From Candidatus Krumholzibacteriota bacterium (GTDB lineage Bacteria > Krumholzibacteriota > Krumholzibacteriia > JAJRXK01): a stretch of DNA of 64,000 nucleotides. A program made the position numbers and the translations under genes. Position 1 is the stretch's first letter; every line of letters starts with the position of its first letter. The notes under the pieces were generated by a model. That model searched no databases, was not told the origin of the DNA, and worked only from the letters and a program-made list of their open reading frames with translations. The DNA lies in assembly GCA_963727455.1 (NCBI GenBank), contig CAVSGG010000001.1, positions 66,743-130,742 of the forward strand, read 5' to 3'. This document shows positions 5,795 through 56,276 of the stretch, piece by piece.

Positions 5795-6952
5795 CTACTG
5801 TTCTCCCTTCTCGCCCAAGGCCTCGGCGGTGGCGGTGTGGATGACCTTGCCCTCGTGAAGGACGGTACATCCTCCGACGGCGGCGTCCTCGAGATCGACG
5901 CGGAAATTGCCCTCGCGATCTGTCATGTCGCTGATGAGGTTCAGAATGTTCTTGGCGTACATCTCCGAGGAGTTGACGGGGACGAGCCCCGGAACGTTCA
6001 TCATCCCAACCAGAGTGACCCCGTGTTTCACCACGGTCTCGCCGGGAACGCTCAGTTCGCAGTTTCCGCCGGTCTCGACTGCGAGGTCGACGATGACCGA
6101 ACCCACCCGCATGTTCTCCACCATCTCCGCGGTAACCAGCTTGGGGGCGGGCTTGCCCGGGATGGCCGCGGTGGTGATGACCACGTCGGCCTGTTCGATG
6201 CGTGCCTTCACCAGCTCGCGTTGCCTGGCGAGGAACTCCGCGCTCTGCTCCTTCGCATAGCCGTCCTTGTCCTCGACCTCTTGGGCATTCTCGTCGGGGG
6301 GAACCTCGATGTACTTTCCTCCCAGACTCTCCACCTGCTCCTTCACCGCCGGCCGCACGTCACTCACCTCGACGATCGCGCCCAGGCGCTTGGCCGTGGC
6401 GACCGCCTGCAGCCCCGCCACTCCGGCGCCCAAGATGACCACGTGCGCCGGCTTGATGGTCCCGGCCGGGGTTGTCATCATGGGGAAGATCTTCGGCAGA
6501 TGGTTGGCGGCCATGATCACGGCCTTGTAGCCGGAGATGTTGGCCTGGGAGCTGAGCGCGTCCATCTTCTGGGCGCGCGTGATACGCGGCATGCAATCCA
6601 TGGCCAAACAGCTCATCTTCTTGGCCTGGAGGGATCTCACCAGATCCAGATTGCGCGTGGGCCAGAGGAAGGAAATCAGCAGGCTACCCTGCTTCATCTG
6701 CTCCGCTTCCTCTTGCTGTGGCGGATGAAATTTGAGCACCAGATCGGCGGCGCCATAGCCCGCGGGGGCATCGGTCACGATCGTCGCCCCGGCCTTGCGG
6801 TAGGCGTCGTCGCTGATATAGGCCCCCTCACCGGCCTGGCTTTGAACCGAAACCGCGAAACCGGCCTTGATCAGCCGCGCCACGGTGTCAGGCGTCGCCG
6901 CCACCCGGGTCTCGCCAGGGTGTGTTTCCCTGGGAACGAAGGCGGTCAACAT
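5795..6952 (-). CDS. pntAA: NAD(P) transhydrogenase subunit alpha part 1 (NAD-binding domain)
   Basis: ETRVAATP, RITRAQKMDALSSQ, GAGVAGL, DLAVETGGNC; start refined to MLTAFVP. Confidence 0.94.
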   Translation of the reverse strand: MLTAFVPRETHPGETRVAATPDTVARLIKAGFAVSVQSQAGEGAYISDDAYRKAGATIVTDAPAGYGAADLVLKFHPPQQEEAEQMKQGSLLISFLWPTRNLDLVRSLQAKKMSCLAMDCMPRITRAQKMDALSSQANISGYKAVIMAANHLPKIFPMMTTPAGTIKPAHVVILGAGVAGLQAVATAKRLGAIVEVSDVRPAVKEQVESLGGKYIEVPPDENAQEVEDKDGYAKEQSAEFLARQRELVKARIEQADVVITTAAIPGKPAPKLVTAEMVENMRVGSVIVDLAVETGGNCELSVPGETVVKHGVTLVGMMNVPGLVPVNSSEMYAKNILNLISDMTDREGNFRVDLEDAAVGGCTVLHEGKVIHTATAEALGEKGEQ

Positions 6953-7090
6953 GAAGATTCCGTCCCGGTTAAAGGAATAGATCTGCAGCGATTTGCGCCC
7001 AAGAAGATAGTCGGACCCCTCCGGGGGTCCAAGACAATCCGTGGACGGCGTTTCGAATTCGAATCCGGCCCTTTTGACGCGCTGGCTTCC

Positions 7091-7120
7091 TTGACACCCC
7101 CCAAGGCCCGCGATTAGCTT
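7091..7120 (+). promoter_or_regulatory. sigma70 promoter for tRNA-His/hisS
   Basis: TTGACA-N18-TAGCTT ending 12 nt before the tRNA. Confidence 0.6.
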
Positions 7121-7132
7121 AGACGCCCACGT

Positions 7133-7209
7133 GCTGGCGTAGCTCAGCTGGTTAGAGCACCAGATTGTGGATCTGGGGGTCGGTGGTTCGAATCCACCCG
7201 CCAGTACCA
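7133..7209 (+). tRNA. tRNA-His(GTG), atypical: no encoded G-1, G1:U72, discriminator A73, CCA encoded
   Basis: Acceptor stem GCTGGCG/CGCCAGT then A-CCA; D arm GCTC/GAGC; anticodon arm CCAGA-TTGTGGA-TCTGG; T arm GGTGG-TTCGAAT-CCACC. Confidence 0.96.
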
Positions 7210-7250
7210 TGCATCCTCCCTCGGCCTTTGAGGGCCCCGAACTCTTGCTC

Positions 7251-8678
7251 ATGGCAAAGCGTATCGAAGCCAAGCTCGCCAAGGGAATGCGCGACATCGT
7301 CGGCGCGCCGATTCGGCGTAGACAGCGTATGATCGAGACCGTTCAGGGTGTGTTCGAGCGCTTTGGCTTCCAGCCCCTGGAAACGCCCGTCATCGAGGCC
7401 CGAGAAGTACTCGTGGGCGCCAAGGCCGGCGAGACCTCCCAGCGCATCTTCAGCTGGCGGCACGAGGAGGAGGATGCGGAGCTGGGGCTCCGTTTCGATC
7501 TCACCGTGCCTTTGGCGCGCTTCGTGGCCGCGCACCCCGAGCTGCGGCGGCCCTTCAAGCGCTATCAGGTGGGACCGGTCTTTCGGGTGGATAAGCCGGG
7601 CGCGGGGCGCTTTCGCGAATTCCTGCAGTTCGACATCGATACGGTGGGCAGCCGGTCCATGTTGGCCGACGCTGAGATCCTGGGCGCGATGAGCGAGGCT
7701 CTGAGAGCGCTGGGGCTGCCCTCGCACACCATTCGCTGGAACCACCGCGGCGTACTGAACGCCGCCCTGCGCCGCGCGAAGATCGAGCCCAGCCGGGCCG
7801 CCGGCGTCATTCGCATTCTGGACAAGGAAGACAAAATCGGAATCGAAGGGGTACGGGCGGAACTGGGAGGAGGGCGCATCGACGCGGAATCGGGCGCACC
7901 CATCCCCGGCCTCGGCCTCCCGGAGCCACAGATCCACGCACTGGGCGAGTTCCTCGAGCTGCATGACGAGACGGATGACGGGCTGGTCGAGAAATCCAAG
8001 CGCTTCTTGGCGGGCACGAAAAGCGCCGAGGCGGCACTGAAGGAAATCGACGAACTCAGGGCCCATCTGGAAGTCATGGGTTGCGCCGAGCGGGTGCGCT
8101 TCTCGCCCAATCTCGCGCGCGGGATGGACTACTACACCGGCCCCATCTTCGAGGCCACGCTCGATGAGCTGCCCGACTATGGATCGATCATGGGCGGAGG
8201 CCGCTACGACGAGCTCGTCTCCCGCTTCAGCGGCGAGCAGTTGCCCGGAGTGGGGGCCTCGATCGGGGTCGACCGCCTGCTGGCTGCGCTCGATCAACTC
8301 GAGAGCCGCAAGCAGAGCGGGACGGTCACCGAAGTGCTCGTTACCACGATGGACCGCAAGCTTACCCTTACTTACCAGGCCCTGGTTCGCGAGCTGCGCG
8401 AGGCCGGGCTGAATGCGGAAATCTATCTGAATCCCAAGGCGCGTCTGGGTGATCAGCTCAAGTACGCGTCCTTCTGGCAAATTCCCTATGCCGTCATCGT
8501 GGGCGAGGACGAGCTGAAGGAAGAAAAGGTCACGATCAAGGATCTCGAGGAAGGCGCGCGCGCGGCTTCCAAGATGGACGATCGGGCCGAGTGGGTCGAA
8601 CAACGTCCCGGACAGTTCTCATTGGATCGGGCGAGTTTGATTCCGACCCTCAAGAAGCTTCTCGGGCACGGAGGCTGA
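7251..8678 (+). CDS. hisS: Histidine--tRNA ligase (divergent alphaproteobacterial/Caulobacter-like type)
   Basis: KGMRD, LRFDLTVPLAR, motif 2 FRVDKPGAGRFREF, RGMDYYTG, GGGRYD, GASIGVDR; C-terminal anticodon-binding domain. Confidence 0.95.
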   Translation: MAKRIEAKLAKGMRDIVGAPIRRRQRMIETVQGVFERFGFQPLETPVIEAREVLVGAKAGETSQRIFSWRHEEEDAELGLRFDLTVPLARFVAAHPELRRPFKRYQVGPVFRVDKPGAGRFREFLQFDIDTVGSRSMLADAEILGAMSEALRALGLPSHTIRWNHRGVLNAALRRAKIEPSRAAGVIRILDKEDKIGIEGVRAELGGGRIDAESGAPIPGLGLPEPQIHALGEFLELHDETDDGLVEKSKRFLAGTKSAEAALKEIDELRAHLEVMGCAERVRFSPNLARGMDYYTGPIFEATLDELPDYGSIMGGGRYDELVSRFSGEQLPGVGASIGVDRLLAALDQLESRKQSGTVTEVLVTTMDRKLTLTYQALVRELREAGLNAEIYLNPKARLGDQLKYASFWQIPYAVIVGEDELKEEKVTIKDLEEGARAASKMDDRAEWVEQRPGQFSLDRASLIPTLKKLLGHGG

Positions 8679-8763
8679 AAGCCCGCACGCGCCCGGGGAA
8701 TCTCGCTGCACGCGCCTCCCCCGCGCGCCTGCTGGAATGCGCTGTGCTATACTTTTTCTTTCC

Positions 8764-9819
8764 ATGACCAGGTTTTCCGCATCCACTTTCCAACGAACGC
8801 TGGCCAGTTTCGGCGCAGTGGTCTTCGTGCTGCTCGCCATGGAGATCGTGCTGCGCTTGTTCATCGCAACCCCCTCCACCACCGAACCTGACCCGCAGTT
8901 CGAGTACTTTCAGCGCCCTTATTCACGCCAGGTATTCAGTTCGGAGGGCTACAGCAGAACTCGCCTCAATCGCTACGGCTTCAACGACAGCGATCCACTG
9001 CCGAAGAAGCCGCCCCTGCGGGCGTTGATCGTGGGAGATTCTTTCACCGAGGCGATGCAGGTGTATCCCGATCAGAACTTCGGGAGCATTGCCGAGTCGC
9101 AGGTAAACGGCCTGGAAGTCTGCAACGCGGGGCGTTCCGGTTGGGGACCACCGGATATCGCGGCCTTTGTGAAGCTGCGCGCGGCCGAGTTTCGCCCCGA
9201 CCTCCTGGTCATCCAATGCAACGATCTCGATCTCCAGGAGTTTACGCGCGACTGGGAAATCCATCTCCGCCGGACGGACGATGGATACCAGCTCGTCATC
9301 CCCAAGAAGCCCGCCGCCAGCAGTGGGGTTCAGCGCTGGGGCGCCGACCTGAAGCGCGCCTCTGCCCTATTCACGCTCATCCAGAGACGAATCGACGTCC
9401 TGACTCGCCTGGAGCGAGACCGGCTCGAGAAACACTTTTCTCCACCGCCCGCGCAGGCGGCCGAGAATTCCGATACCAATTTTCCTTCCGACGCGGTGGA
9501 CATGCTGGTGTATCTGTACCGTCAAATGTCCCGCATTTATCCCGACATCATCTATCTCTACATTCCGCGAATCGATTATTCCAAGAACGGGGGAGAGCTC
9601 ACCACGCCGCAGAACCGCGAGGTGTACTTGGAGTTTGCCAGGCGCTGTGGGGTTACGCTCATCGATCCCACCGACGCCCTCTTGAAGGAATACCATCGGA
9701 GCGGACAGCCCTGTCACGGCTTTCAAAACAGCGAAATGGGAAAGGGCCACATGAACGCGCGCGGTCACCGAGTGGTAGGCAAGTTGCTCGCTGAAGAGTT
9801 GAGGAAACATCTACCATGA
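8764..9819 (+). CDS. Membrane-anchored SGNH/GDSL-like protein (AlgJ/AlgX-type O-acetylation partner), paralog 1
   Basis: N-terminal TM helix; VGDSFTE block I; NAGRSG; C-terminal GHMNARGH; overlaps the MBOAT start (ATGA). Confidence 0.75.
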   Translation: MTRFSASTFQRTLASFGAVVFVLLAMEIVLRLFIATPSTTEPDPQFEYFQRPYSRQVFSSEGYSRTRLNRYGFNDSDPLPKKPPLRALIVGDSFTEAMQVYPDQNFGSIAESQVNGLEVCNAGRSGWGPPDIAAFVKLRAAEFRPDLLVIQCNDLDLQEFTRDWEIHLRRTDDGYQLVIPKKPAASSGVQRWGADLKRASALFTLIQRRIDVLTRLERDRLEKHFSPPPAQAAENSDTNFPSDAVDMLVYLYRQMSRIYPDIIYLYIPRIDYSKNGGELTTPQNREVYLEFARRCGVTLIDPTDALLKEYHRSGQPCHGFQNSEMGKGHMNARGHRVVGKLLAEELRKHLP

Positions 9820-11219
9820 TCTTCTCCTCGATCGAATTCTTCGTGTTCTTGGCCCTGGTCCTCTTGGGCTTGGGACTCTTGCGCAGGGAAGAGGGCCGGC
9901 GGAATCTCCTGCTGGTGTCCAGCTACGTATTCTACGGCTGGTGGGACTGGCGCTTCTGTTTCCTCATTCTCGCCTCGACCATCATCGACTATGCAGCCGG
10001 CCGTTTCATGGAACGCAGCTCGACGCAAGTCGCGCGCAAGCGCTGGCTCGTGGTGAGCCTGGTCGCGAACCTTGGCATTTTGAGCGTCTTCAAGTACGCC
10101 AATTTCTTCTTGGGCAACTTCAGGCCGCTGTTCGGTGCGGCGGGGGTGAACCTTCCTCACCTGAACATCATTCTGCCGGTGGGGGTCTCCTTCTTCACTT
10201 TCCAAACGATGAGCTACTCGATCGACGTCTACCGCAGGAAGTTGCCCGCCACGCACAATTTTCGCGACTTCGCGCTCTTCGTTTCCTTTTTCCCGCAACT
10301 GGTGGCGGGACCCATCGTCCGTGGCGCCGAATTCCTGCCTCAACTCGCGTTCGTACATCCCCTGAAACGCTCGAACATCCACGCGGGACTGGACATCTTT
10401 CTGCGCGGTTTCACCAAGAAGGTGTTGTTCGCGGACACCCTGGCGACCTACGTGGATCCCGTGTTCGCACACCCGGCCGCGTATTCCTCGGGAACGGCGT
10501 GGATGGCTGTCATCGCCTACGCCTTCCAGATCTATTACGACTTCTCCGGCTACAGCGACATGGCCATTGGCGTGGGCAAAATGATGGGCTTCGAGCTGCC
10601 GGTGAACTTCCGGCACCCTTATCGCAGTCTCAACGTCACCGAATTCTGGCGCCGCTGGCACATCACCCTCAGCGGGTGGTTGCGTGATTACCTTTACATT
10701 TCCTTGGGCGGAAACCGAAAGGGCCGCGGGCGCACTTACGTCAATCTGATGCTCACGATGTTGCTCGGCGGTCTCTGGCACGGGGCCTCCTGGAATTTCG
10801 TGGTATGGGGCGGGCTGCACGGAGCGGCTCTGGCTGTTCACAAACTCTACATGAGCTTGCGGGGAGAGAATGCCCCCGCCCCCGGCTTCGTGCGCAAGTT
10901 CTTCTCCTGGGCCGCGACCTACGTGTTCGTGCTCGTGACCTGGGTGTTCTTCCGCGCACAGAACTTCTCTACCGCGTGGACCTATTTGCAGAAGCTCGCC
11001 TTCGCGAACGCGCGCGGCATCGAATGGTATTACGTGCAGGCCATGGTGGTCATCGCGTTGGGGGCGGCGCTGCACATCGCGGTGGTTATGCGCGACGACC
11101 GCGAGCTCGTCATCGACTTCCGACGGCCCATCATGTGGGGCGTGGCCGTAGGTATGATGATCGTCATCCTCCTCTACTCCCCCTTCGGTAACAGCCCCTT
11201 CATCTACTTCCAGTTCTAG
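9816..11219 (+). CDS. MBOAT family O-acyltransferase (AlgI/PatA-like)
   Basis: LPVGVSFFTFQ, FFPQLVAGPI, QIYYDFSGYSDMA, FWRRWHITLS, GLWHGA. Confidence 0.93.
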   Translation: MIFSSIEFFVFLALVLLGLGLLRREEGRRNLLLVSSYVFYGWWDWRFCFLILASTIIDYAAGRFMERSSTQVARKRWLVVSLVANLGILSVFKYANFFLGNFRPLFGAAGVNLPHLNIILPVGVSFFTFQTMSYSIDVYRRKLPATHNFRDFALFVSFFPQLVAGPIVRGAEFLPQLAFVHPLKRSNIHAGLDIFLRGFTKKVLFADTLATYVDPVFAHPAAYSSGTAWMAVIAYAFQIYYDFSGYSDMAIGVGKMMGFELPVNFRHPYRSLNVTEFWRRWHITLSGWLRDYLYISLGGNRKGRGRTYVNLMLTMLLGGLWHGASWNFVVWGGLHGAALAVHKLYMSLRGENAPAPGFVRKFFSWAATYVFVLVTWVFFRAQNFSTAWTYLQKLAFANARGIEWYYVQAMVVIALGAALHIAVVMRDDRELVIDFRRPIMWGVAVGMMIVILLYSPFGNSPFIYFQF

Positions 11220-11276
11220 CTTACGGCGACACGCCTCCGCGCCTCTCAGCCACCCTATGCTATACTCTCTCTTGCC

Positions 11277-12359
11277 ATGATCAGACCACCGCGTCTCCTT
11301 TTTCGCCAGGCCATCGCCCGTTTAGGCGCGATCGCTTTCGTTTTGCTTTCCATGGAATTCGTGCTGCGTTTGTGGATTGCGACACCCGCGACCACCGAGC
11401 CTGATCCACAGTTCGAGTACTTTCAACGCCCCTATTCGCGGCAAGTGCACAGCTCGGAAGGCTATAGCCGCACGCACATGAACGAATTCGGTTTCAATGA
11501 CGAAGATCCTTGGCAGCAGGAACCGCGGCGCCGCGCCCTGCTTGTCGGCGATTCCTATACCGAAGCAATGCAGGTCTACCCGGGGCAGAATTTCGGCAGT
11601 GTGGCCGAGTCTCTGGTAGATGGCTTGGAGGTTTGCAACGCGGGACGCGCGGGGTGGGGGCCGCCCGATCTTGTGGCCTTCGCAAAAATCCGTGGAAGGC
11701 AATTTTCGCCGGACGTGGTGGTGATTCAGCTCAACGACGGCGATCTCAGGGAGTTTTTTAGGCCAGGGTCAGCCCACATGATTCCGGATCAGGATGGGTG
11801 GGAATTGGTGGTTCCTGAGATAAGAGCGGATGCCTCCTGGAGCCATGCCCTGCTGCGCTCGTTGATGCAGTCTTCTTCCTTGATCACCCTCCTGGGGTGG
11901 CGCAGTAGGACCCTGCTGAATCTCGAGAGGGGGCGTCTCCGCGAACGCTTCGTGCCCAGGGCGGTGCAGGCTGCCGGCTTGACTGGAAAATCCCGGACTG
12001 CGACGGATAGCCAGGGGGTACCTTTCGAAGCAACGGACATGCTCTGTGCTTTGCACTGGAGACTCAACGAGAGCTATCCCGATCCCATTTACGTCTGCAT
12101 TCCGCGCATCTCGTACCTGGATGACACCGTTGCCTATCCGCGGCGCCGCGCGATCTATCACGAATTTGCCGCGCGTACCGGCGCCGTGTTCATTGATCCC
12201 ACCGACGCGCTCCTGGCCGAGTACCATCTCCATGGGCAGCCCTGCCACGGATTCCAGAACAGCGAGATGGGGAAGGGGCACCTCAATGCACGGGGACATC
12301 GGGTGGTGGGCGAGCTTCTCGCGGCCGAACTGCGGAAGCGACTCCCAAAATCGAGGTAA
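11277..12359 (+). CDS. Membrane-anchored SGNH/GDSL-like protein, paralog 2
   Basis: Shares long identical blocks with 8764-9819 (TTEPDPQFEYFQRPYSRQ, GQPCHGFQNSEMGKGH); VGDSYTE. Confidence 0.75.
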   Translation: MIRPPRLLFRQAIARLGAIAFVLLSMEFVLRLWIATPATTEPDPQFEYFQRPYSRQVHSSEGYSRTHMNEFGFNDEDPWQQEPRRRALLVGDSYTEAMQVYPGQNFGSVAESLVDGLEVCNAGRAGWGPPDLVAFAKIRGRQFSPDVVVIQLNDGDLREFFRPGSAHMIPDQDGWELVVPEIRADASWSHALLRSLMQSSSLITLLGWRSRTLLNLERGRLRERFVPRAVQAAGLTGKSRTATDSQGVPFEATDMLCALHWRLNESYPDPIYVCIPRISYLDDTVAYPRRRAIYHEFAARTGAVFIDPTDALLAEYHLHGQPCHGFQNSEMGKGHLNARGHRVVGELLAAELRKRLPKSR

Positions 12360-12436
12360 GCCTTCCTTACTAGGAACGCGTCAGATGCTCATTCTTGCGC
12401 GGGCCGCCCTTCATCCTTTGTGTCGAGGTCCGGAAG

Positions 12437-13726
<1,290 letters not shown>

Positions 13727-13839
13727 GAAACTGCTCCCTGTTCTGAAGTGGGGCGGTGAAGTCGAGAATGGCGCCTCGACATTTACGGGCAGCTTCGATT
13801 CAAACAGTCGTTTCGAAGGATCCCGCCAAGGTGAATGAT

Positions 13840-15039
13840 ATGTCGCAAAAGAACGCTATCCAAGGAACAGATGCCCACGACGCCGATTTTCCGGCCGAGA
13901 ACGAAACGGACGCCAAGGAACCCCGCTGGGAGCTGGTTCGCATGGCGCGCAGCTTCTGGAAGCGGCTCCGCTGGACCGTCCGCCTTCTGGTCTTGGGCGC
14001 GGGAGTCTTGCTCGTCGCCCAGCTCTTCGCGCTCTATCGCGCACTCGCCGACCTGCATCCCTGGCTCGGTCTCGCGGGGGTGCTCGTGTTCGTGGGGCTC
14101 TTGGCTTGGCTGGTGGGCCGCCCCCTCGCGAGTGCGCTGCGTCTTCCCGGGGTGGTGACGCCGCCGCGCATGCCCGCGGCTCCGCAACGCACCGCTTCTG
14201 ACGCCCGGCGCCAGCTGAAGTACCTGGAGCGCTACCTGCGCGCGCAGCAGAGAAATCCGGCCCTGAGTGCGCAGAAGGAGAAGTTGCAGGAGTCACTGCG
14301 AGCGGTGGGCGAGTTGCGGCAGACGGCGCGAAAGCTCGACGATGCGCGGGAGCTCTCCGCGCGCATCACCCACGTGGAGCGCGAATATGTGCTCCCGCTC
14401 CTGGAGCCACTGGATCGTCGTGCCGAGACCCTCATCCATCGCGAGGCCCTGGCCATCGGGTCGATGACCGCTCTCTCTCCCAACGGCACCCTCGACGCAT
14501 TCTTGGTGCTATGGCGCAACATCAATCTCGTCGCGGCCCTGGCTCGTCTCTACTACGGACGTCCAGGATTGATCGGAACGGGACTCATCCTGCGGGACGT
14601 TTCCTCCGCCATCCTACTCTCCAGCGTGCTGGAGCAGATCAGCGACATGGGGGGCAGCCTCTTGCGCAAGCTCGGGGAGGGCGGGCGCAGCATTCCCCTT
14701 TTGGGGGCGCTGGTGGGGCCGGTCCTGGACGGCACGATCAACGGACTCATGACGATGAAGGTGGGATACCTGGCCCAGGAGCGGTGTCGCTCGTTTCGGG
14801 CTTGGGACGGCCGAACCAAGCGCGGTATCATCCGGCGGACCTTTCATCTGGTCGGTGATTCGGCCGCGCTCTTCATGGAGGAGCTCAACAAGTCGGTAGT
14901 GCAGTCGCTCAACTTGGTGAAATTCACCGCGGAAGCCGGCAAAGGCGCCGCCCACACCGTGAGCTCCAAGGCGCTCGCTCTGTGGAGGAGCATTCGTCGA
15001 GTGATGGGCCCGCAACCGTCCTGGGATCAAGAGTCATGA
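13840..15039 (+). CDS. YcjF/DUF697 family membrane protein
   Basis: Two N-terminal TM helices; TALSPNGTLDA...LYYGRPG and GTINGLMTMKVG patterns. Confidence 0.65.
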   Translation: MSQKNAIQGTDAHDADFPAENETDAKEPRWELVRMARSFWKRLRWTVRLLVLGAGVLLVAQLFALYRALADLHPWLGLAGVLVFVGLLAWLVGRPLASALRLPGVVTPPRMPAAPQRTASDARRQLKYLERYLRAQQRNPALSAQKEKLQESLRAVGELRQTARKLDDARELSARITHVEREYVLPLLEPLDRRAETLIHREALAIGSMTALSPNGTLDAFLVLWRNINLVAALARLYYGRPGLIGTGLILRDVSSAILLSSVLEQISDMGGSLLRKLGEGGRSIPLLGALVGPVLDGTINGLMTMKVGYLAQERCRSFRAWDGRTKRGIIRRTFHLVGDSAALFMEELNKSVVQSLNLVKFTAEAGKGAAHTVSSKALALWRSIRRVMGPQPSWDQES

Positions 15040-15554
15040 ATTCTTCCAAGCGACCGTCCGCAGAAGACCTTCCCGAAGCCTACCGCGGATATCTCGCCGA
15101 AGTCCCCGAGGGGGACATCGTTCTGAGCCTGGCCGTGGCGTGGACGGAGACCAAGGCTCTGTTGCGCGGGCTCAGCGAAGAGCGGGCGGGGCACCGCTAC
15201 CAGGAGGGAAAGTGGAGCATCAAAGAAATTTTGGTGCATCTGATGGACACGGAGAGAATTTTCGTCACGAGGGCCCTGCGTTTCGCTCGCGGCGACGCCA
15301 CCGAGCTACCCGGATACGACCAGGACCACTATGTAACGCACTGTAACGCGGGAATTCGTCCCACCGCAGAACTCATCGAAGAATTTCAATGGATGAGGGG
15401 TGGCCATCTCCGCTTCTGGCGTGGTCTTCCCGAGGCGGCCTGGCAGCGTCGCGGCGTCGCCAATGGGTGCGAATTCACGGTGGCAGCCATCGCTTGGATT
15501 CTCGCCGGGCACGAACGCCACCACCGCCGCATCATCCAGGAACGCTATCTCTGA
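15036..15554 (+). CDS. DinB family protein
   Basis: RYQEGKWSIKEILVHLMD...ILAGHERHH His triad. Confidence 0.85.
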   Translation: MNSSKRPSAEDLPEAYRGYLAEVPEGDIVLSLAVAWTETKALLRGLSEERAGHRYQEGKWSIKEILVHLMDTERIFVTRALRFARGDATELPGYDQDHYVTHCNAGIRPTAELIEEFQWMRGGHLRFWRGLPEAAWQRRGVANGCEFTVAAIAWILAGHERHHRRIIQERYL

Positions 15555-15633
15555 GGAGCTTGCCTGGGCGACACGCTGGCTCTAAGCTGGCGCGGTTCGC
15601 TCGCCCCCGTGTTCGCTTGAGGAGGCAGAAGAG

Positions 15634-16752
15634 GTGGGTCCGTCCGTTCTACTTACGATCGAGCTCGCGCTGGGGGTGGCGCTCGGACTTTTAGCGGCCC
15701 TGCTCTTTCTGCGGCGGCGCAGCACCCCGGCGGGTCTGACCCTGGCCTTCGTGGTGGTCCTGGCTCTGGCCGTGGTGCCCCCCGCCCTCCTGGGTCCCCG
15801 CATGGCGACGCGCCCGAGGCGCGTCCGCGTGGTGAGCGTTCTCGACCAGCCCACGACCCAGGCCCTGACCGAGGCTTTCACGCGACGCACCGGGATTGTC
15901 TGCGACGTGGATCCTTTCGCTGGAGGCACGCAGACCACGGCGGGTCTGATTCTCCAGGGGCGGCTCCACCCGGACGTTCTTTTGGGGGGAACGGTGGAGA
16001 TCCACGAGGAACTGGCCCAGAAGCAGCTTCTGGCCCCCCACGTCATTCGCCCAGATAGCAGGCGCACCAGTCTCTACGACGACCCCGATGGGCGCTGGAC
16101 TCCGCTCTATCTCGGGCTTTTGGGACTGGTCTACCGGCCTTTGCCGGAGTTCCAGGCACGCGCGCCGGACTGGCTCAGTCTGATTCAACCCCGCTTCAAG
16201 AACCGGGTCTCCATTCCCGCACCGGACAAATCCGGCGGGGGCCTGGTCTTTCTCGCCACCCAGCTGCAGCGGCAGAAAGAGATCGAGAAGTGCTGGGAGT
16301 ACCTGCAGCTCTTGGACGAAAACGAAGTCCACTGGGAGGACCGCTCGAGCGTGCCCATTTCCCGCGTGGCGGCGGGAACCATGGATCTTGGAGTGGCCTG
16401 GGCGCACGACGTCCTGCGACGCATCGAGAGCGAGCGACTCCCGGTGAAGATGACCATTCCGCGCGAAACCGGCTTCGAGGTGGGGGCGGCCAGCATCTTG
16501 GCCAACGCGACCGACCCGGAAGCCGCGCAGCGCTTTCTCGATTTTCTCACCGGCAAGGAGGCGGGGCGCATCCAGGCCGAGGTGGGCCATCGGGTGCCGC
16601 TGCGCACCGACATCGATCTCCCCGGCTATCTGGACCACTCGCTGCCCGATTTGAAGACCGGCAGTGGAGGGATGCACTACGACCGCGCGTTCGTGGTCAA
16701 GAACCAGGACGCGTGGATCAAACGCTGGAAGGCCATGCGCGCGCAGAGCTGA
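15634..16752 (+). CDS. Extracellular solute-binding protein (Fe3+/thiamine AfuA-like) with two N-terminal TM helices
   Basis: PDVLLGG, WLSLIQPRFKNRVSIPAPDKSG, AAQRFLDFL. Confidence 0.72.
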   Translation: MGPSVLLTIELALGVALGLLAALLFLRRRSTPAGLTLAFVVVLALAVVPPALLGPRMATRPRRVRVVSVLDQPTTQALTEAFTRRTGIVCDVDPFAGGTQTTAGLILQGRLHPDVLLGGTVEIHEELAQKQLLAPHVIRPDSRRTSLYDDPDGRWTPLYLGLLGLVYRPLPEFQARAPDWLSLIQPRFKNRVSIPAPDKSGGGLVFLATQLQRQKEIEKCWEYLQLLDENEVHWEDRSSVPISRVAAGTMDLGVAWAHDVLRRIESERLPVKMTIPRETGFEVGAASILANATDPEAAQRFLDFLTGKEAGRIQAEVGHRVPLRTDIDLPGYLDHSLPDLKTGSGGMHYDRAFVVKNQDAWIKRWKAMRAQS

Positions 16753-16803
16753 AGCGGCCAAAAGGCGAAAATCGCTCCACCGTTGCGGTCGAAGCGCTCG
16801 AAC

Positions 16804-16832
16804 TTGCGTCTTGCGGCCCGCCACCCTACACT
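16804..16832 (+). promoter_or_regulatory. sigma70 promoter upstream of HAD gene
   Basis: TTGCGT-N17-TACACT. Confidence 0.5.
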
Positions 16833-16931
16833 TCCTAGCCGGTTTGTGCCGTTTGCGGCGACTTTCATGCGCGGCCACTGGAAGCGGTGGTTCGCACCCC
16901 ACGTTCAAGCGAGAGACTCGTAAGGAATCCC

Positions 16932-17684
16932 ATGGCAACACTCGAACTGACCCGTCCGCTCGTTCTGGCGATCGATCTCGACGAGACCTTCCTGGAGGCG
17001 GATGCAAGCTCCAAGCAAGACCTCCTGGACCTTCTCGACGGTTCGCGGGAGCAATTGAATCTCATCTACATGAGCCACGACACGGCCGAGGGCTTGATCG
17101 GCCTGGCCGCGAAGGCCGAGCTTCCGGTTCCCGATGTCTTCCTTTCCGACAGCGGCACCACCGCTCTTAAGGGAGATGGAAGCGGGACCATCGACACCTT
17201 GCAGCGGAACATTATTCAACTGTGGCCAGGGAAGGCCGCGGTGAGTCGTGTGGTCGAGGCCATCGAAGGTGCACAGCTTCTGGAAGACGACTCGCCCTGC
17301 CGCCAGGCAGTCCACTACGACAACGATGAAGCCTACGAAGCTCTGGTGAAGGGCACGGACTCGATCGGTTGCCACCTGGTACTGCGTCGCAACAATCGGG
17401 TGGACGTCTTGCCCTACGGCGTGGACAAGGGATCGTCCCTGGGTCGATGGGTCGTGGAAGAAAACCACAATCCCATGAGCGTGTTGGCCTACGGCGAGAG
17501 CCTCGGCGACGTTTCACTCTTCGGCCGCGGGTGGCGCGGAGTCTGTTTTCCACACGGACCACAAGAGATGATCAAGGAGGCCACGCGCTTCCACAACGTG
17601 TACGTGGCCGAGGCGGATGGCCCCGCCGGCGTGCTCGATGGATTGCGTCACTTCGGGTGGATTCCCGCCACCGCCGGAGTTTGA
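16932..17684 (+). CDS. HAD-IIB hydrolase, sucrose-phosphatase-like
   Basis: DLDETFL motif I; DVLPYGVDKG; motif IV variant GESLGD. Confidence 0.7.
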   Translation: MATLELTRPLVLAIDLDETFLEADASSKQDLLDLLDGSREQLNLIYMSHDTAEGLIGLAAKAELPVPDVFLSDSGTTALKGDGSGTIDTLQRNIIQLWPGKAAVSRVVEAIEGAQLLEDDSPCRQAVHYDNDEAYEALVKGTDSIGCHLVLRRNNRVDVLPYGVDKGSSLGRWVVEENHNPMSVLAYGESLGDVSLFGRGWRGVCFPHGPQEMIKEATRFHNVYVAEADGPAGVLDGLRHFGWIPATAGV

Positions 17685-17728
17685 CGGCAGGGCGAAATTT
17701 CCCTGGAACACATCGCTAAGATGGAATT

Positions 17729-17755
17729 CCGGTCCCTTCACGGGGGCCGGTTTTT
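17729..17755 (+). terminator. Intrinsic terminator
   Basis: CCGGTCCCT-TCAC-GGGGGCCGG followed by TTTTT. Confidence 0.75.
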
Positions 17756-17810
17756 GTGTCCTCCCTTCGCGCCTCTTGGACAGGCCGGAGGCAAAAAGGG
17801 GGAGAAGACG

Positions 17811-17836
17811 GGAACTCATTTTCACCTCGCTCGTTG
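17811..17836 (+). promoter_or_regulatory. ECF (RpoE/SigH-type) promoter for degP
   Basis: GGAAC-N16-CGTTG about 40 nt upstream of the ATG. Confidence 0.6.
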
Positions 17837-17876
17837 AATCCGTGAGCCTGGTAACGAGACGGAAAGGTGGAACCCC

Positions 17877-19373
<1,497 letters not shown>

Positions 19374-20736: not shown

Positions 20737-20793
20737 TCCAGCCTTAGGAAGGCGCGCGACTTCGCCGAGCGAACCACAGTGAGGAGAATTCCG

Positions 20794-23700
20794 ATGAGAC
20801 GCATTCCGTGGACCGTTGCCGCTTTGAGCCTGGCACTCAGCCTGGTTTGGGCCCAGTCCTCGCGCGCAGTCAAACCCCGCTATGAGCGCAAGGGCAACCA
20901 GGAGAACGAGGAGGCCAAGAAGAAGGGGGTCATGAGCGAGGACACCTTCAAAGGCCTCAGCTTTCGGGCATTGGGGCCGGCTCTCACCAGCGGGAGAGTT
21001 GGAGATCTGGCGGTCGACCCCAACAATCCCAAGCGCTATTTCGTGGCGGTTTGCTCAGGCAACGTGTGGAAGACCGAGAACGACGGGACGACCTTCGAGC
21101 CTGTCTTCGACAAATACGGCTCCTACAGCATCGGCTGCGTGACGCTGGATCCCAACGATCCGCACCTGGTTTGGGTTGGAACCGGAGAGAACAACTCGCA
21201 GCGCTCGGTGGCCTACGGGGACGGAGTCTACAAATCGACCGACGGTGGGCAAAACTTCAAGAACATGGGCTTGAAGGAAAGTGAACACATCGGAATGATC
21301 GCAGTGGATCCGCGCAACAGCGACGTGGTGTTCGTCGCGGCCCAGGGCCCTCTCTGGCGTAGCGGGGGAGATCGGGGTCTCTACCGCACCGAGGACGGCG
21401 GGGAAACTTGGGACAAGATCCTCGACATCGACGAAAACACAGGCGTCAACGAGGTTCATCTCGACCCGCGCAATCCGGACGTCATGTATGCCACCACCTA
21501 CCAACGGCGCCGTCACGTGTGGGTCCTTCTGGACGGCGGGCCAGGCAGCGGCATTTACAAGTCCACCGACGGTGGAGAGAACTGGGAGGAACTGACGAAC
21601 GGAATTCCCGATGTCGACAAGGGGCGCATCGGGCTCGCGATTTCCCCCGCCGACCCCGACTTTGTCTACGCCATCATCGAAGCCCAGGACAAAGAAGGTG
21701 GAGTCTTCCGTAGTACGGATGCCGGAGCCACCTGGAAGAAGATGTCCTCGACCATGTCGACCAGCCCGCAGTACTACAACGAGCTAGTTTGCGACCCGAA
21801 TGACCCGGACCGCGTCTACAGCATGGATACTTTCCTCAAGGTCAGCGAAGACGGCGGGGCGACCTTTTCGCGCGTGCCCGGCAAGTACAAGCACGTCGAC
21901 AACCACGTTCTGTGGATTGACCCCGACGATACGGACCACATGCGCGTGGGGTGTGACGGCGGTCTCTATGAAACTTGGGACCGCGCAGCGACCTGGCTGT
22001 TCAGAGCCAATCTGCCGGTCACGCAGTTCTACAAGATCGCCATCGACAACGATTCACCCTTCTACAATGTCTATGGCGGCACCCAGGACAACAACACCAT
22101 CGGCGGTCCGACCCGCACCAACAGCGCCAGTGGAATCCACAACTACGACTGGTACATCACGCTCGGTGGCGACGGCTTTGGGCCGGCGGTGGACCCCGAG
22201 GACCCCGATATCGTCTACTCGCAGTGGCAGTACGGCAATCTCGCCCGTTACGACCGGCGCAGCGGCGAAGTGCAGGACATCCAGCCTCAACCCGAGAAGG
22301 GCGAAGTTCTCAAGTGGAACTGGTCGTCGGCCCTCCTCATCAGTCCTCACGATCCGCATCGCCTCTACTATGGCGCGAACAAACTCTTCCGCAGCGACGA
22401 TCGCGGGGACAGCTGGGTGAAGGTGAGCGGCGATCTGACACGCCAGCTCGACCGGAACGCGCTTGGGGTGATGGGGCGGGTTTGGAGCGTGGACGCAGTC
22501 GCAAAGAACAACTCGACCTCGTATTACGGGACCATCGTGAGCCTTAGCGAATCGCCTCTGCAGGAGGGACTTCTCTACGTCGGTACCGACGACGGCCTCA
22601 TTCAGGTGAGCGAGGATGGAGGACAACACTGGCGAAAGCAGGAGAGCTTCTCGAACGTTCCCGACATGAGCTATGTCTCTTACATCATCGCTTCCTCGCA
22701 CGACGTGAACACCGTCTATGCATCCTTCGACAATCACAAACGAGGCGACTTCCAGCCCTACCTTCTCAAGAGCACGAATCGGGGCAAGGGCTGGGATTCG
22801 ATTAGCGGAGACCTTCCCGAGCGCGGCAGTGTCTACGCGATCGCCGAGGATTACCTCGATCCGAATCTTCTTTTCGCCGGTACCGAGTTCGGCGTGTTCT
22901 TCACGGTGGATGGAGGCGAGCACTGGATCCAGCTCGAGGGAGGCATCCCCACCATTGCCTGCCGCGATCTCAAAATCCAACGCCGCGAGAGCGATCTCGT
23001 GGTGGGAACGATGGGTCGCGGGATTTACGTGCTGGACGACTACAGCCCGCTGCGCTCGGCGAGTCGGGAGACTCTGGAGCACGAGGCGCTTCTGTTTCCG
23101 GTGAAGAAGGCGGAACTCTATCATCCCGCGACTCCTCTGGGCGGCAACGGCAAGTCGAGCTTGGGCGACGCGTTCTTTGTGGCGGAAAACCCTCCTTTCG
23201 GCGCTGTCTTCAGTTACTACCTCAAGGACGGCTATCAGAGTTTGCGCGAGGAGCGCAGGAAGAATGAGAAGGAGATCGAGAAGAAGGGCGGAGACAACCC
23301 CTATCCCTCTTGGGAAGAGTTGCGGAAGGAAGACGAAGAGGAGGCACCGGCCGTCGTCCTGGTCGTTCGCGACGAGGCCGGCAAGGTCGTCCGGCGTGTC
23401 GTGGGAGAAAGCGGGAAGGGGATCCACCGTACTGCCTGGGACCTGCGCTTTCCCGCTCCGGATCCTTCCTCTACCAAGGAATGGAAGGCGCCCGATCCCT
23501 GGACTGCTCAACCCGCGGGGCCTCCCGTCCTCCCCGGTTCCTACACGGTGCAGCTCATGGCTCGGGTGCGCGGCGAGACGAAAACTCTGAGTGAGGAGGT
23601 TCCGTTCACGGTCGAAGCGCTGAATCTGGCGAAGTTACCCGCAAAGGACGGCGCAAAGAACCTGCAATTCCGCAAAGAGACTGCGGAACTGCGACGCGCG

Positions 23701-24120
23701 GTTTTGGGCGCGCGCCGCTCGATGAAAGAAATCCAAGATCGCATCGATCACATGCGAGTTGCGCTCCGCGATACGCCGGGCGCGGACAAATCCCTCACCA
23801 ACGAACTCGACGGTATCGAGGCGCGCCTGCGAAAGCTGCGCACGCTCATGAACGGAGATCACACGATCTCCTCGCGTAGCGAAGCGACCACGCCGGGTTT
23901 GGTAGAGAGAATGGATCGAGCGACCTGGGGCTGGAGCAACTCCTCGGCTCCGACGGAGACGCAGCGCCAAACCTTCCAGATCGCGCGCGACCAGTTCAAG
24001 AACGAGGTACTACCCGAGCTCCAAGAGCTCATGAATTCGGTACTGCCGGACTTCGAGCAGAAACTCGAGGAGCTGGGCGCGCCGTGGACGCCGGGACGCG
24101 TGCCAGAGTATCAGGGTTGA
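20794..24120 (+). CDS. Secreted VPS10/sortilin-like BNR-repeat beta-propeller protein (putative glycosyl hydrolase), paralog 1
   Basis: Signal peptide; GPALTSGRV; many [ST]xDGGxxW Asp-box repeats; YGGTQDN; C-terminal coiled coil. Confidence 0.82.
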   Translation: MRRIPWTVAALSLALSLVWAQSSRAVKPRYERKGNQENEEAKKKGVMSEDTFKGLSFRALGPALTSGRVGDLAVDPNNPKRYFVAVCSGNVWKTENDGTTFEPVFDKYGSYSIGCVTLDPNDPHLVWVGTGENNSQRSVAYGDGVYKSTDGGQNFKNMGLKESEHIGMIAVDPRNSDVVFVAAQGPLWRSGGDRGLYRTEDGGETWDKILDIDENTGVNEVHLDPRNPDVMYATTYQRRRHVWVLLDGGPGSGIYKSTDGGENWEELTNGIPDVDKGRIGLAISPADPDFVYAIIEAQDKEGGVFRSTDAGATWKKMSSTMSTSPQYYNELVCDPNDPDRVYSMDTFLKVSEDGGATFSRVPGKYKHVDNHVLWIDPDDTDHMRVGCDGGLYETWDRAATWLFRANLPVTQFYKIAIDNDSPFYNVYGGTQDNNTIGGPTRTNSASGIHNYDWYITLGGDGFGPAVDPEDPDIVYSQWQYGNLARYDRRSGEVQDIQPQPEKGEVLKWNWSSALLISPHDPHRLYYGANKLFRSDDRGDSWVKVSGDLTRQLDRNALGVMGRVWSVDAVAKNNSTSYYGTIVSLSESPLQEGLLYVGTDDGLIQVSEDGGQHWRKQESFSNVPDMSYVSYIIASSHDVNTVYASFDNHKRGDFQPYLLKSTNRGKGWDSISGDLPERGSVYAIAEDYLDPNLLFAGTEFGVFFTVDGGEHWIQLEGGIPTIACRDLKIQRRESDLVVGTMGRGIYVLDDYSPLRSASRETLEHEALLFPVKKAELYHPATPLGGNGKSSLGDAFFVAENPPFGAVFSYYLKDGYQSLREERRKNEKEIEKKGGDNPYPSWEELRKEDEEEAPAVVLVVRDEAGKVVRRVVGESGKGIHRTAWDLRFPAPDPSSTKEWKAPDPWTAQPAGPPVLPGSYTVQLMARVRGETKTLSEEVPFTVEALNLAKLPAKDGAKNLQFRKETAELRRAVLGARRSMKEIQDRIDHMRVALRDTPGADKSLTNELDGIEARLRKLRTLMNGDHTISSRSEATTPGLVERMDRATWGWSNSSAPTETQRQTFQIARDQFKNEVLPELQELMNSVLPDFEQKLEELGAPWTPGRVPEYQG

Positions 24121-25375: not shown

Positions 25376-25635
25376 CTTGAGACCTCGCGGGCGCGGGGAA
25401 AATGGAAGGTGAATGAATGAGAAGTTCCTTCGAAGGAACGGTTCTCCATCCAGGCGAGAGCTCAATACTCTCTAAGACGATAAGATCCAGCTTCTTCCCC
25501 CCAAAAGGTGAATGGCACTCAGATCGCGCGCGTGGGCCGGACGATCCGCCACTGGAATTACGCCGCGAAATGGTGTTTCATGGGTTCAGCTCGAATCCCC
25601 AGGTATTCCATTGATCTGCAGTTTTGGGAGGATCC

Positions 25636-28600: not shown

Positions 28601-28929
28601 AGGACCTACAGAAGGGACTCAAGGGACTGGAAGAGCGCCTGCGCGGGCCCCTGAAACCCAAGGGCTACATCGGCGGGGAATGGCCTTCACGACGCATGGA
28701 CCGCGCGCGTTGGCTGCTCGGTCCGAGCTGGCAGAAGCCCACCGAAGCCGGACTTCGCTACCTGCAGTTGGCCGAAGATGATACGCGTCCCGTGCTGGAC
28801 GACCTGAACCACTTCTTCGAGAACGAGGTTGCTGCCTTCAGGACGGAGGTGGCGTCGTCGGGATTGACCCTGTTCCCTGAGCGAGATCCGATCGAACTCA
28901 GCCCAGAAGGAAGTGGAGCAAAGGAGTGA
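25636..28929 (+). CDS. Secreted VPS10/sortilin-like BNR-repeat beta-propeller protein, paralog 2
   Basis: Signal peptide; IGPAGMSGRI; Asp-box repeats; YGGMQDNG; same architecture as 20794-24120. Confidence 0.82.
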   Translation: MLREAPRVRRLTLYFLFALALLALAPPSLCRARFDPGLLAGMKARSIGPAGMSGRIVAIASVPQDENLIYLGTATGGLWKSVNGGLNFEPVFDDQAVASIGAIALEPGNPDVVWVGTGESNPRNSASVGDGVYKSLDGGRTWHHLGLEKSEHIRRIVIDPRDPDRVYVASLGPAWSDGGDRGLYRTTDGGKSWKKILGANDRTGCTELVMDPSNPNKLFAALWEYRRWPWFFESGGKGSGLFVSYDAGDSWEQLSEEDGLPAGELGRIAMAFSPSDPKILYALVEAEDNVLLRSEDGGHSFKLASKGDNIGNRPFYFSDIHVDPAWPNRVYSLWSQVSVSMDSGKSFQVLVSWSKAHPDHHAMWIDPKNPRRLILGNDGGVYLSQDRGQSWRFVSNLPLAQYYHIAVDDDQPYHVYGGMQDNGSWRGPNTVWENGGIRNYQWEEVGYGDGFDTRPYPRDSMVGYSMSQEGYLIRWNLHTGERKSIRPAPPSDEKLRFNWNAGFSLDPFDSDTIYLGSQYLHKSSDRGEHWTIISPDLTSNNPDWQNQDESGGLTPDVTGAENFTTIVAIEPSPLKKGVIWVGTDDGRLQLTRDGGDHWESLEGHAKGVPDNTWIPCIYASTHEPGTAFVLFEDHRRGNWTPYVYRVDDYGKHWRNLATDDIRGYCLSVVQDPVDPQLLFLGTEFGLYFSLDGGEHWMKWTHGIPTVSVMGLAIQTRENDLVVGTHGRSAYVIDDIRPLRTMSESLLQEPLHLFSIPSAVEYQVKQAGASRFPGDGEFRGKSQARGAMITVAVHDAELPYPDEKVEKQRKKKESDADDTEAEKPEKLQVTVRNARGERVRHFKREVKQGVNRIVWSLDSDAFKKIPGNKSEEEEESDVKGGGPQVMPGTYTVTLSYKDSKVEGELRVLPDPRIPIGEKDRQEAWSTQERLGHLQETIAEAVERIHAADKDCDFVLAKIARLKSEAKSQENESADAGVDSTRWQDLKKKTEDLQKGLKGLEERLRGPLKPKGYIGGEWPSRRMDRARWLLGPSWQKPTEAGLRYLQLAEDDTRPVLDDLNHFFENEVAAFRTEVASSGLTLFPERDPIELSPEGSGAKE

Positions 28930-55600: not shown

Positions 55601-56276
55601 CTTGCTCGAGCGTGACCCCATAGGCGCGCATCGCATCGGGATCGACGTCGATCTGGTACTCCTTGACGAAGCCACCCACCGAGGCAACTTCCGAGACTCC
55701 CTCCACCCCCTGCAGGGCGTAGCGCACGTACCAGTCCTGCACCGAGCGAAGTTCGTCGAGATCCCAGCCCCCGGCGGGATTTCCCTGAGGATCGCGCCCT
55801 TCCAGGGTGTACCAGTACACCTGTCCCAACGCCGTTGCATCCGGACCGAGTTGCGGTTGCACCCCTTGCGGCAGGGTTCCCGCCGGCAGACTGTTCAACT
55901 TCTCCAAGAGGCGGGAGCGCGACCAGTAGAACTCCACGTTTTCCTTGAAGATCACGTAGACGGTGGAGAAGCCGAACATCGAATAGCTGCGGATGGTCTT
56001 CACGCCCGGAATTCCCAAAAGGGCAACCGTGAGCGGATAACCGATCTGGTCCTCGACGTCCTGTGGACTGCGGCCGGGCCAGGCGGTGAACACGATCTGT
56101 TGGTTCTCCCCGATGTCGGGGATGGCGTCGACGGGAACCGGATCACGCGGCAGGCCGTGCGCGTTCCAGGGGAAGGGCGCCACCATGATACCCCAGACGA
56201 TCACCGCCAAAAGGCCCAGAACCACCACCAGTTTGTTGTCCATGCAGAAGCGGATGATGCGGTCGGTCAGACTCAC
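52642..56276 (-). CDS. cusA: CusA/CzcA family heavy-metal RND permease (frameshifted near 54480-54660)
   Basis: DAIPDIGENQQIV, GPDATALGQ, AIAIGTMVD, FMPDLDEG, RIRPCLMT. Confidence 0.9.

Follow-up and report, generated by a model that had tools for sequence, protein, structure and literature searches.

A candidate tRNA-His and histidyl-tRNA synthetase pair without the G-1 identity element in a Krumholzibacteriota bacterium

In a 64,000-nucleotide stretch of contig CAVSGG010000001.1 (the window, to which coordinates refer unless another locus is named), we found a tRNA-His gene and, 41 nt behind it on the same strand, hisS, the gene for histidyl-tRNA synthetase (HisRS). Going by the sequences and by analogy with the pair of Caulobacter, we consider it likely that a Krumholzibacteriota bacterium uses these two genes as its housekeeping pair for histidine charging, and that this pair does not need G-1 as an identity element. 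The G-1 of tRNA-His is regarded as among the most universal of tRNA identity marks. A single alphaproteobacterial lineage is named as the sole bacterial exception in a 2023 review (PMC9976931) and in passages of PMC3937112 and PMC4338351, the last of which speaks of 'the only exceptions ... identified to date'. In the window pair, neither the canonical G-1:C73 nor the canonical glutamine in motif 2 of HisRS is present; the pair has T-1, A73 and Gly117 in these places.

The tRNA-His(GTG) gene lies at 7133-7209 on the forward strand and is the sole tRNA that ARAGORN finds in the 64-kb window; the Rfam tRNA model scores 71.5 bits over 7133-7206, and direct reading of the sequence places an encoded CCA at 7207-7209. 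Position 7132, which corresponds to -1, is T, so that G-1 is not encoded by the gene. The first acceptor pair, G7133:T7205, is G1:U72, pairs 2-7 are Watson-Crick (including C2:G71), and the discriminator is A7206 (A73). The original prediction had named the T at 7132, the G1:T72 pair and the A discriminator, and the sequence, ARAGORN and Rfam bear out all three. In passages of PMC3064791, the marks of the G-1-less group are A73, G1-U72 and a 9-nt D-loop with U20a; the D-loop of the window tRNA-His, AGCTGGTTA, has 9 nt with the extra U20a. The gene is 99% identical to the tRNA-His gene of L009, a 216-kb contig from a metagenome-assembled genome (MAG) labelled Candidatus Krumholzibacteriota. The 5' end of the mature tRNA-His is the main uncertainty of our reading, and it is from the gene sequence that we infer an end at G1.

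When we compared 19 tRNA-His genes (the window gene, 17 from related genome-contig loci and, as a reference, a Sinorhizobium gene, L089), we found G1:U72, C2:G71, seven acceptor pairs and A73 in all 19, and C73 or a G-1:C73 pair in none. Because the same features recur in 19 of 19 genes, chance is not an issue for the features of the window tRNA. The D-loop has 9 nt in 16 of the genes and CCA is encoded in 15. The base at -1 is T in 16 genes, G in two (L011 and L022) and A in one (L033); T is also the commonest base at -1 before other tRNAs from the same loci (7 of 12), which fits ordinary RNase P cleavage. The Sinorhizobium gene, which came from a blastn hit (H34) in the plasmid collection and was confirmed as a tRNA-His, the other blastn hits being mostly different tRNAs, has the same T-1/G1:U72/A73 layout and the same GT context as the window gene. 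The 3:70 pair is U:A in the window, L009 and L062, A:U in the Planctomycetota locus L033 and in three of four alphaproteobacterial genes, and C:G in the Acidobacteriota-type cassettes, including that of L014, which is labelled Planctomycetota and whose enzyme groups with Acidobacteriota. This pattern is congruent with joint inheritance of tRNA and HisRS, as far as the sequences indicate. Two Acidobacteriota cassettes, L011 (9885-9959, Thermoanaerobaculia) and L022 (9832-9906, Holophagales), have a G-1 opposite A73 and a 7-nt D-loop, a gene layout that resembles the eukaryotic one.

The hisS gene (7251-8678, forward strand) encodes a class II HisRS of 475 amino acids (P0001), which scores 363.6 bits on NCBIfam TIGR00442 (cut-off 286.75) and has the Pfam domains tRNA-synt_His and HGTP_anticodon. 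Its start is ATG 7251, 41 nt 3' of the CCA as had been predicted, and hisS homologues begin at MAK or MT, in line with this ATG. An in-frame ATG at 7209, which overlaps the CCA, was rejected as the start: L009 has an in-frame TAG before its MAK start.

The enzyme is of a type with glycine in motif 2 and two insertions. The motif-2 loop (residues 112-124, RVDKPGAGRFREF; 7584-7622, forward strand) reads RVDKPGAGRF, with Gly117 at the Gln position of Gln-type enzymes, and alignment upholds the PG in place of PQ that had been read from the sequence. Insertion 1 (residues 206-222, GGGRIDAESGAPIPGLG; 7866-7916, forward strand) is a predicted beta hairpin of the insertion domain, with strands 208-210 and 217-219 in an AlphaFold model; its GRIDAESG, flagged earlier, is a real insertion when set against the HisRS of Bacteroidota, Bacillus and archaea. 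Insertion 2 (residues about 439-456, including DDRAEWVEQRPGQF; 8565-8618, forward strand) had been described as an extended C-terminus with W..RP.Q. It is a real insertion, located within the anticodon-binding domain rather than forming a simple tail at the C-terminus. Its residues W448, R452 and Q455 are invariant across an alignment of 15 family members (A1), and the model has a helix (445-451) and a strand (455-459) in or beside it and another helix (432-439) just before it. With a mean predicted local distance difference test score (pLDDT) of 86.4, the predicted structure confirms a HisRS fold with ordered insertions and says nothing on tRNA contacts. Among solved structures, those of human cytosolic, Nostoc and Elizabethkingia HisRS come closest, with the Thermus and E. 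coli enzymes behind them; trypanosomatid HisRS structures also match less closely than the first three.

A search with the window HisRS of a plasmid collection that includes mislabelled chromosomes and chromids matched 110 records. The best 18 rows are all hisS genes of Rhodobacterales or Hyphomicrobiales, with 35.8-41.0% identity over 98-99% of the query in 17 rows and 88% in one. The rows that follow (Bacillota, Bacteroidota and an archaeon) have 30-34% identity, with the exception of one actinobacterial match below the top 18 (37% identity over 80%). We aligned the window enzyme with alphaproteobacterial HisRS from Cereibacter, Sinorhizobium, Methylobacterium, Ruegeria and Paracoccus and, for contrast, with HisRS from Phocaeicola (Bacteroidota), Bacillus and Haladaptatus (archaeal). 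Common to the window enzyme and the five alphaproteobacterial enzymes are the motif-2 Gly (KPG.GRFR), an insertion G-R-x-D-(x)-E-S-G...G-x-G and an insertion in the anticodon-binding domain, ..R/N-x-E/A-W...R-P-x-Q... In contrast, neither insertion is found in the Phocaeicola, Bacillus and Haladaptatus enzymes, whose motif-2 position is occupied by Gln or a different residue. Passages of PMC3937112 describe the motif-2 Gly as a derived replacement of the Gln that contacts G-1:C73 and call it unique to the alphaproteobacterial clade; for alphaproteobacterial HisRS, excerpts from PMC3064791 describe several inserts, one of them unique to the anticodon-binding domain.

The insertions and the motif-2 residue go together across a larger set of 249 HisRS rows (the window, 88 loci, 149 representatives and 11 close homologues). 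Both insertions are present in 127 rows, and none of these has a motif-2 Gln (95 have PG, 20 have PD and the rest other residues). The other 122 rows were scored as lacking at least one insertion, and 96 of them have the Gln; L025, which is counted among the 122, belongs to the family but is truncated by the end of its contig. All 43 closest proteins (64-100% identity, the query included) carry the Gly form. Taken together with the alphaproteobacterial best matches and the grouping in trees described below, the Gly-for-Gln exchange and the two insertions support the original prediction of a Caulobacter-type HisRS.

To find further members of this family, we made a profile search of genome contigs with alignment A1, which returned at least 597 relatives among at least 599 candidate stretches; the best 80 loci were kept. 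By record title, which in several cases labels a short contig where mis-binning is possible, 50 of these 80 belong to Pseudomonadota (47 labelled alphaproteobacterial and three without a class label, namely two with phylum-level titles and one Pseudooctadecabacter MAG), 13 to Acidobacteriota, seven to Planctomycetota and three to Bacteroidota, one of which (L083) has a Gln-type enzyme. Krumholzibacteriota, Ignavibacteriota, Zixibacteria, Hydrogenedentota and Nitrospirota are represented by one locus each, and two loci are unlabelled.

We scored a locus as a tRNA-hisS cassette when ARAGORN placed a tRNA-His gene within the 400 nt that precede hisS, in the same orientation. Among the best 80, 13 of the 29 family loci from outside Alphaproteobacteria have the cassette (L009, L011, L014, L016, L020, L022, L023, L024, L025, L027, L033, L062 and L071), and four of the 16 loci without it have less than 250 nt of upstream sequence and could not be judged. 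Cassettes also stand on long contigs of 216 kb (Krumholzibacteriota), 173 kb (Planctomycetota) and 67 kb (Holophagales). In alphaproteobacterial loci, we found the cassette in two of 50, one MAG (L050) and one Pelagibacteraceae locus (L073); the other 48 have no tRNA-His within 400 nt upstream, and in Rhizomicrobium (L040) the tRNA lies 4.8 kb upstream. The linked cassette noted in the window thus recurs, and the sequences and record titles indicate that the HisRS family is multi-phylum and often cassette-linked to its tRNA. In one Thermoanaerobaculia MAG (L071), two tandem tRNA-His genes (9564-9640 and 9814-9890), whose anticodon stems differ, stand before one hisS. In Rhodobacterales, hisZ, which encodes a HisRS-like regulatory subunit of ATP phosphoribosyltransferase, follows hisS (L001, 4464-5561; L004, 4468-6242), and in Ruegeria hisG does so as well; neither is found beside the window hisS.

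The phylogeny that the original prediction had called for was run on selected subsets of the 249 rows, with Gln-type outgroups on which the root relies. In a FastTree tree of 147 rows, the insertion-bearing family is one group apart from the Gln-type enzymes (support 96), the seven Krumholzibacteria-clade rows are grouped (100), and all alphaproteobacterial rows form one nested group (99). The second tree was made with a short IQ-TREE search under the LG+C20 mixture on 72 rows (17 of the 55 alphaproteobacterial rows, 13 Gln-type outgroup rows and 42 other family rows). Here the SH-like approximate likelihood ratio test (SH-aLRT) gives 93 for outgroup versus family, 100 for the Krumholzibacteria-labelled clade and 98 for one clade of the 17 alphaproteobacterial rows. 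The alphaproteobacterial clade lies inside a group (99) with the Planctomycetota-labelled L033, L045, L038 and L049, which also takes in L062 and four unnamed representatives. The window enzyme is outside the alphaproteobacterial clade, in a separate deep clade of the insertion-bearing family. Forcing the 42 non-alphaproteobacterial family rows into one clade costs 149.2 log-likelihood units and is rejected (p-AU 1.6e-15, approximately unbiased (AU) test); this test was chosen after the first tree was seen, though the grouping is the natural taxonomic one. In these trees, the alphaproteobacterial enzymes are a nested branch of a wider family, next to Planctomycetota sequences. Because the alphaproteobacterial clade is nested in this way, the window pair does bear on the origin of the alphaproteobacterial pair, as the original prediction had proposed. 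A placement of the Krumholzibacteria clade as sister to the remaining family, seen with FastTree, was dropped, the base of the family being unresolved in the mixture-model tree.

The HisRS tree does not track phylum, and labels and clades conflict for L012, L014, L069, L018, L027 and L068. Three enzymes labelled Planctomycetota group with Acidobacteriota, an enzyme labelled Chitinophagales is placed almost identically to the Ignavibacteriota one, and the cluster of P0031, a protein from the clade with Krumholzibacteria labels, has one member labelled Polyangiaceae. These conflicts would come either from gene transfer or from mis-binning of short contigs.

The host is not alphaproteobacterial, in agreement with the original prediction. 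Among named HisRS, the closest (95% identity) bears the label Candidatus Krumholzibacteria, the cluster of P0025 (65% identical to the window HisRS) also has a Krumholzibacteria-labelled member, and the L009 enzyme is 86% identical to that of the window. By blastn, the window is collinear with the L009 contig over 1-11220 (82.4%) and 12437-18553 (80.4%), through gyrA, pntB, pntA, the tRNA, hisS, an acyltransferase gene, the citrate synthase gene (gltA) and further genes. The GC content of the window is even (0.60-0.65), and within its 64 kb we found no second tRNA (ARAGORN) and no second HisRS among the scanned open reading frames (ORFs). Because of the collinearity with L009, the even GC content and the lack of a second tRNA or HisRS in the window, we regard the pair as a native, housekeeping one. 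Its surroundings are thus a conserved housekeeping neighbourhood, in a genome that is not alphaproteobacterial and whose phylum name rests on MAG labels. The citrate synthase matches (at least 120), few of which carry names, added nothing to the taxonomy of the host. The link between hisS and the citrate synthase gene (7251-13726) seems to be kept in the clade, and contigs of 10292, 71747 and 500985 bases appear to hold close homologues of both HisRS and citrate synthase.

Just 5' of the tRNA gene is a putative promoter-like stretch (7091-7120, forward strand), made up of TTGACA at 7091-7096, an 18-nt spacer and TAGCTT at 7115-7120, which ends 12 nt before the tRNA. Both boxes are kept in L009, whereas the sequence immediately upstream diverges, and comparable boxes stand directly 5' of the tRNA in other tRNA-His-hisS cassettes. 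Of the TTGACA promoter that had been predicted, the box itself and its conservation stand, and a complete promoter does not; 7091-7120 may act as a promoter, and we keep it as promoter-like only. The tRNA-hisS spacer (7210-7250, forward strand) has 41 nt, and its counterparts have 41 nt in L009, 41 nt in L011 and 42 nt in L014. A scan of 6800-8900 gave no terminator-like site on the forward strand between tRNA-His and hisS. A regulatory structure in the spacer was considered and rejected, the fold being no better than shuffles (z +1.08). On the reverse strand, the scan called a terminator-like site within the pntA leader (7011-7032), made up of a GC-rich hairpin and a stretch rich in T after it; the site is kept in L009 with one loop change.

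Since the two genes are on the same strand and 41 nt apart, with no terminator-like site between them on the forward strand, boxes kept in L009 and the cassette in 13 of 29 loci, we propose that tRNA-His and hisS would be transcribed as one unit from a promoter just 5' of the tRNA. RNase P would then cut at the ordinary site between U-1 and G1, leaving a 7-bp acceptor stem with G1:U72, A73 and the encoded CCA, and the tRNA-His would be released from the hisS message. By analogy with the Caulobacter crescentus enzyme, HisRS would select this tRNA by the GUG anticodon, U72 and A73, and G-1-independent charging may rely on the insertion in the anticodon-binding domain.

Several observations weigh against this proposal. 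Two further insertions that all five alphaproteobacterial HisRS have are missing from the window enzyme; together with the 36-41% identity, this means that its recognition rules may differ in detail. Caulobacter HisRS itself is in none of the alignments, where it is represented by other Hyphomicrobiales and Rhodobacterales enzymes. The sigma-70 scan called no complete promoter within 6800-8900, because the -10 box, TAGCTT, is weak (3 of 6 matches). The view extends over 64 kb, and a canonical tRNA-His, a second HisRS or a Thg1-like enzyme is possible elsewhere in the genome. Finally, in the minimum-energy structure predicted for the precursor, U-1 is paired to A73 and G-2 to C74, so that an extended stem and a shifted RNase P cut are possible.

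This last point bears on the 5' end, since RNase P might cut one or two bases upstream, so that the mature tRNA keeps U-1 or G-2 U-1. The bases at these positions would suit such a cut: G-2 is present in 14 of the 19 tRNA-His genes, across phyla, and T-1 in 16, and GT stands before only 2 of the 12 other tRNAs. The T-1 is, as noted above, the commonest base before those other tRNAs too, and the fold of the precursor beats its shuffles by a modest margin only (z -1.98, with 8 of 200 shuffles equally good). In work of 2007, Wang et al. are said to have found the mature Sinorhizobium and Caulobacter tRNA-His to be without an extra nucleotide. We consider a cut upstream of G1 very unlikely and keep to the ordinary site.

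Another possibility is that a Thg1-like 3'-5' polymerase puts on G-1 once the tRNA has been transcribed, as happens in eukaryotes. In favour of this, eukaryotes have A73 as their discriminator, the solved HisRS structures that match best are of a eukaryote-like kind, PMC3061083 reports Thg1-like proteins in some bacteria, and only 64 kb of the genome is in view. Against it stands the finding attributed above to Wang et al., on lineages whose genes share the T-1/G1:U72/A73 layout. No Thg1-family match was found among the window ORFs scanned (42 + 2 with NCBIfam and 28 with Pfam), and the window HisRS is without the Gln that is associated with G-1 reading in passages of PMC3937112. We give this explanation hardly any weight as against charging without G-1.

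It might also be that the cassette is an extra, horizontally acquired one and that a canonical G-1:C73 tRNA-His and a Gln-type HisRS in the remaining genome, outside our view, do the main work. The cassette form suits transfer, and the departure of the HisRS tree from phylum labels would fit such a history. However, the gyrA-pntAB-hisS-gltA order is kept in L009, base composition is even, and scanning window ORFs with NCBIfam and Pfam turned up no mobile-element genes. The 43 closest proteins are all of the Gly form and two clusters of the clade hold Krumholzibacteria-labelled proteins, so that the type looks fixed in the clade. An extra pair is therefore an improbable account, and we prefer to read the window genes as the housekeeping pair.

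The origin of the alphaproteobacterial pair is disputed. Passages of PMC3937112 assume that a HisRS derived from eukaryotes was transferred; according to PMC5370408, this found no support in a later study, and convergence is suggested. The nearest case that we found in the literature is that of G-1-less tRNA-His with an 8/4 structure in alphaproteobacterial phages and one alphaproteobacterium (PMC5389517). We found no report of a G-1-less pair outside Alphaproteobacteria in the full-text literature searched, in which subscription journals were not covered. On balance, we lean slightly towards the view that the G-1-less system did not originate in Alphaproteobacteria and is an older bacterial cassette, carried across Krumholzibacteriota, Acidobacteriota, Planctomycetota and other phyla, and that the common ancestor of the Rhizobiales-Rhodobacterales-Caulobacterales-SAR11 alphaproteobacteria acquired tRNA and enzyme jointly from a donor close to the Planctomycetota sequences of today. 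If this is true, a co-acquired cassette would replace both a eukaryote-derived HisRS with in-place adaptation of the tRNA, and convergence, as the explanation of the alphaproteobacterial pair. To judge by the sequences of the window and its relatives, the exception to G-1 reaches far beyond what has been described, and with the alphaproteobacterial version nested within it the question of origin becomes testable. The cassettes are natural pairs, maybe orthogonal to the canonical system, and as such candidates for genetic-code engineering; rules of tRNA annotation and the use of the G-1 trait as a taxonomic marker need a caveat.

Elsewhere in the window, we noted a copper P-type ATPase (50256-52696, reverse strand) that is split over three frames (50256-51455, 51040-52122 and 51665-52696) and a CusA/CzcA-type resistance-nodulation-division (RND) pump (52642-56276, reverse strand) that is split over two (52642-54345 and 54363-56276); these are either frameshifted genes or assembly indel errors. 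On the forward strand, 20779-24120 and 25624-28929 encode paralogous proteins of about 1100 amino acids with Sortilin/BNR repeats and an F510_1955-type glycosylhydrolase signature, and a SpoIIE-type phosphatase gene lies between them.

The known system to which we compared the window pair most closely is the alphaproteobacterial one (Rhizobiales-Rhodobacterales-Caulobacterales-Parvularculales), for which the founding papers are Wang et al. 2007 and Ardell & Andersson 2006, and whose Caulobacter crescentus pair is the subject of Yuan et al. 2010/2011 (PMC3064791). Like the genes of this lineage, the window tRNA-His is without an encoded G-1 and has G1:U72, A73 and a 9-nt D-loop, and its HisRS shares the motif-2 Gly, the two insertions and the grouping in trees. 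According to passages of PMC3064791, recognition in the Caulobacter pair depends chiefly on the anticodon and U72 and to a lesser degree on A73, and addition of G-1 is of no help. The window pair differs from the alphaproteobacterial one in its host (Krumholzibacteriota), in its 36-41% HisRS identity with two insertions fewer, and in its 3:70 pair, which is U:A where the alphaproteobacterial genes mostly have A:U (three of four). It differs in gene order as well: 48 of the 50 alphaproteobacterial loci have no adjoining tRNA-His, whereas the window tRNA is directly upstream of hisS, and the hisZ that follows hisS in Rhodobacterales, with hisG as well in Ruegeria, is absent beside the window gene. 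As judged by sequence, then, the window pair has every mark of a Caulobacter-type pair except membership of the alphaproteobacterial clade.

The Pelagibacteraceae (SAR11) locus L073 has the same cassette, with a tRNA-His 32 nt upstream of hisS that has T-1, G1:U72 and A73; the SAR11 enzyme is inside the alphaproteobacterial clade, whereas the window enzyme is in a separate deep clade. Co-transfer of tRNA-His and HisRS into SAR11 was discussed by Wang et al., as cited in passages of PMC3937112. In Trypanosoma brucei and Acanthamoeba castellanii, HisRS likewise acts on a tRNA-His without G-1 and relies strongly on the anticodon; these enzymes are eukaryotic, the authors consider them to have arisen independently, and the passages of PMC4338351 that treat them describe no preference for G1:U72. 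With the canonical bacterial system (an encoded G-1:C73, a shifted RNase P cut and a Gln-type HisRS), the window pair shares only the class II fold and the catalytic motifs; the G-1, the C73 and the motif-2 Gln of that system are all missing from it.

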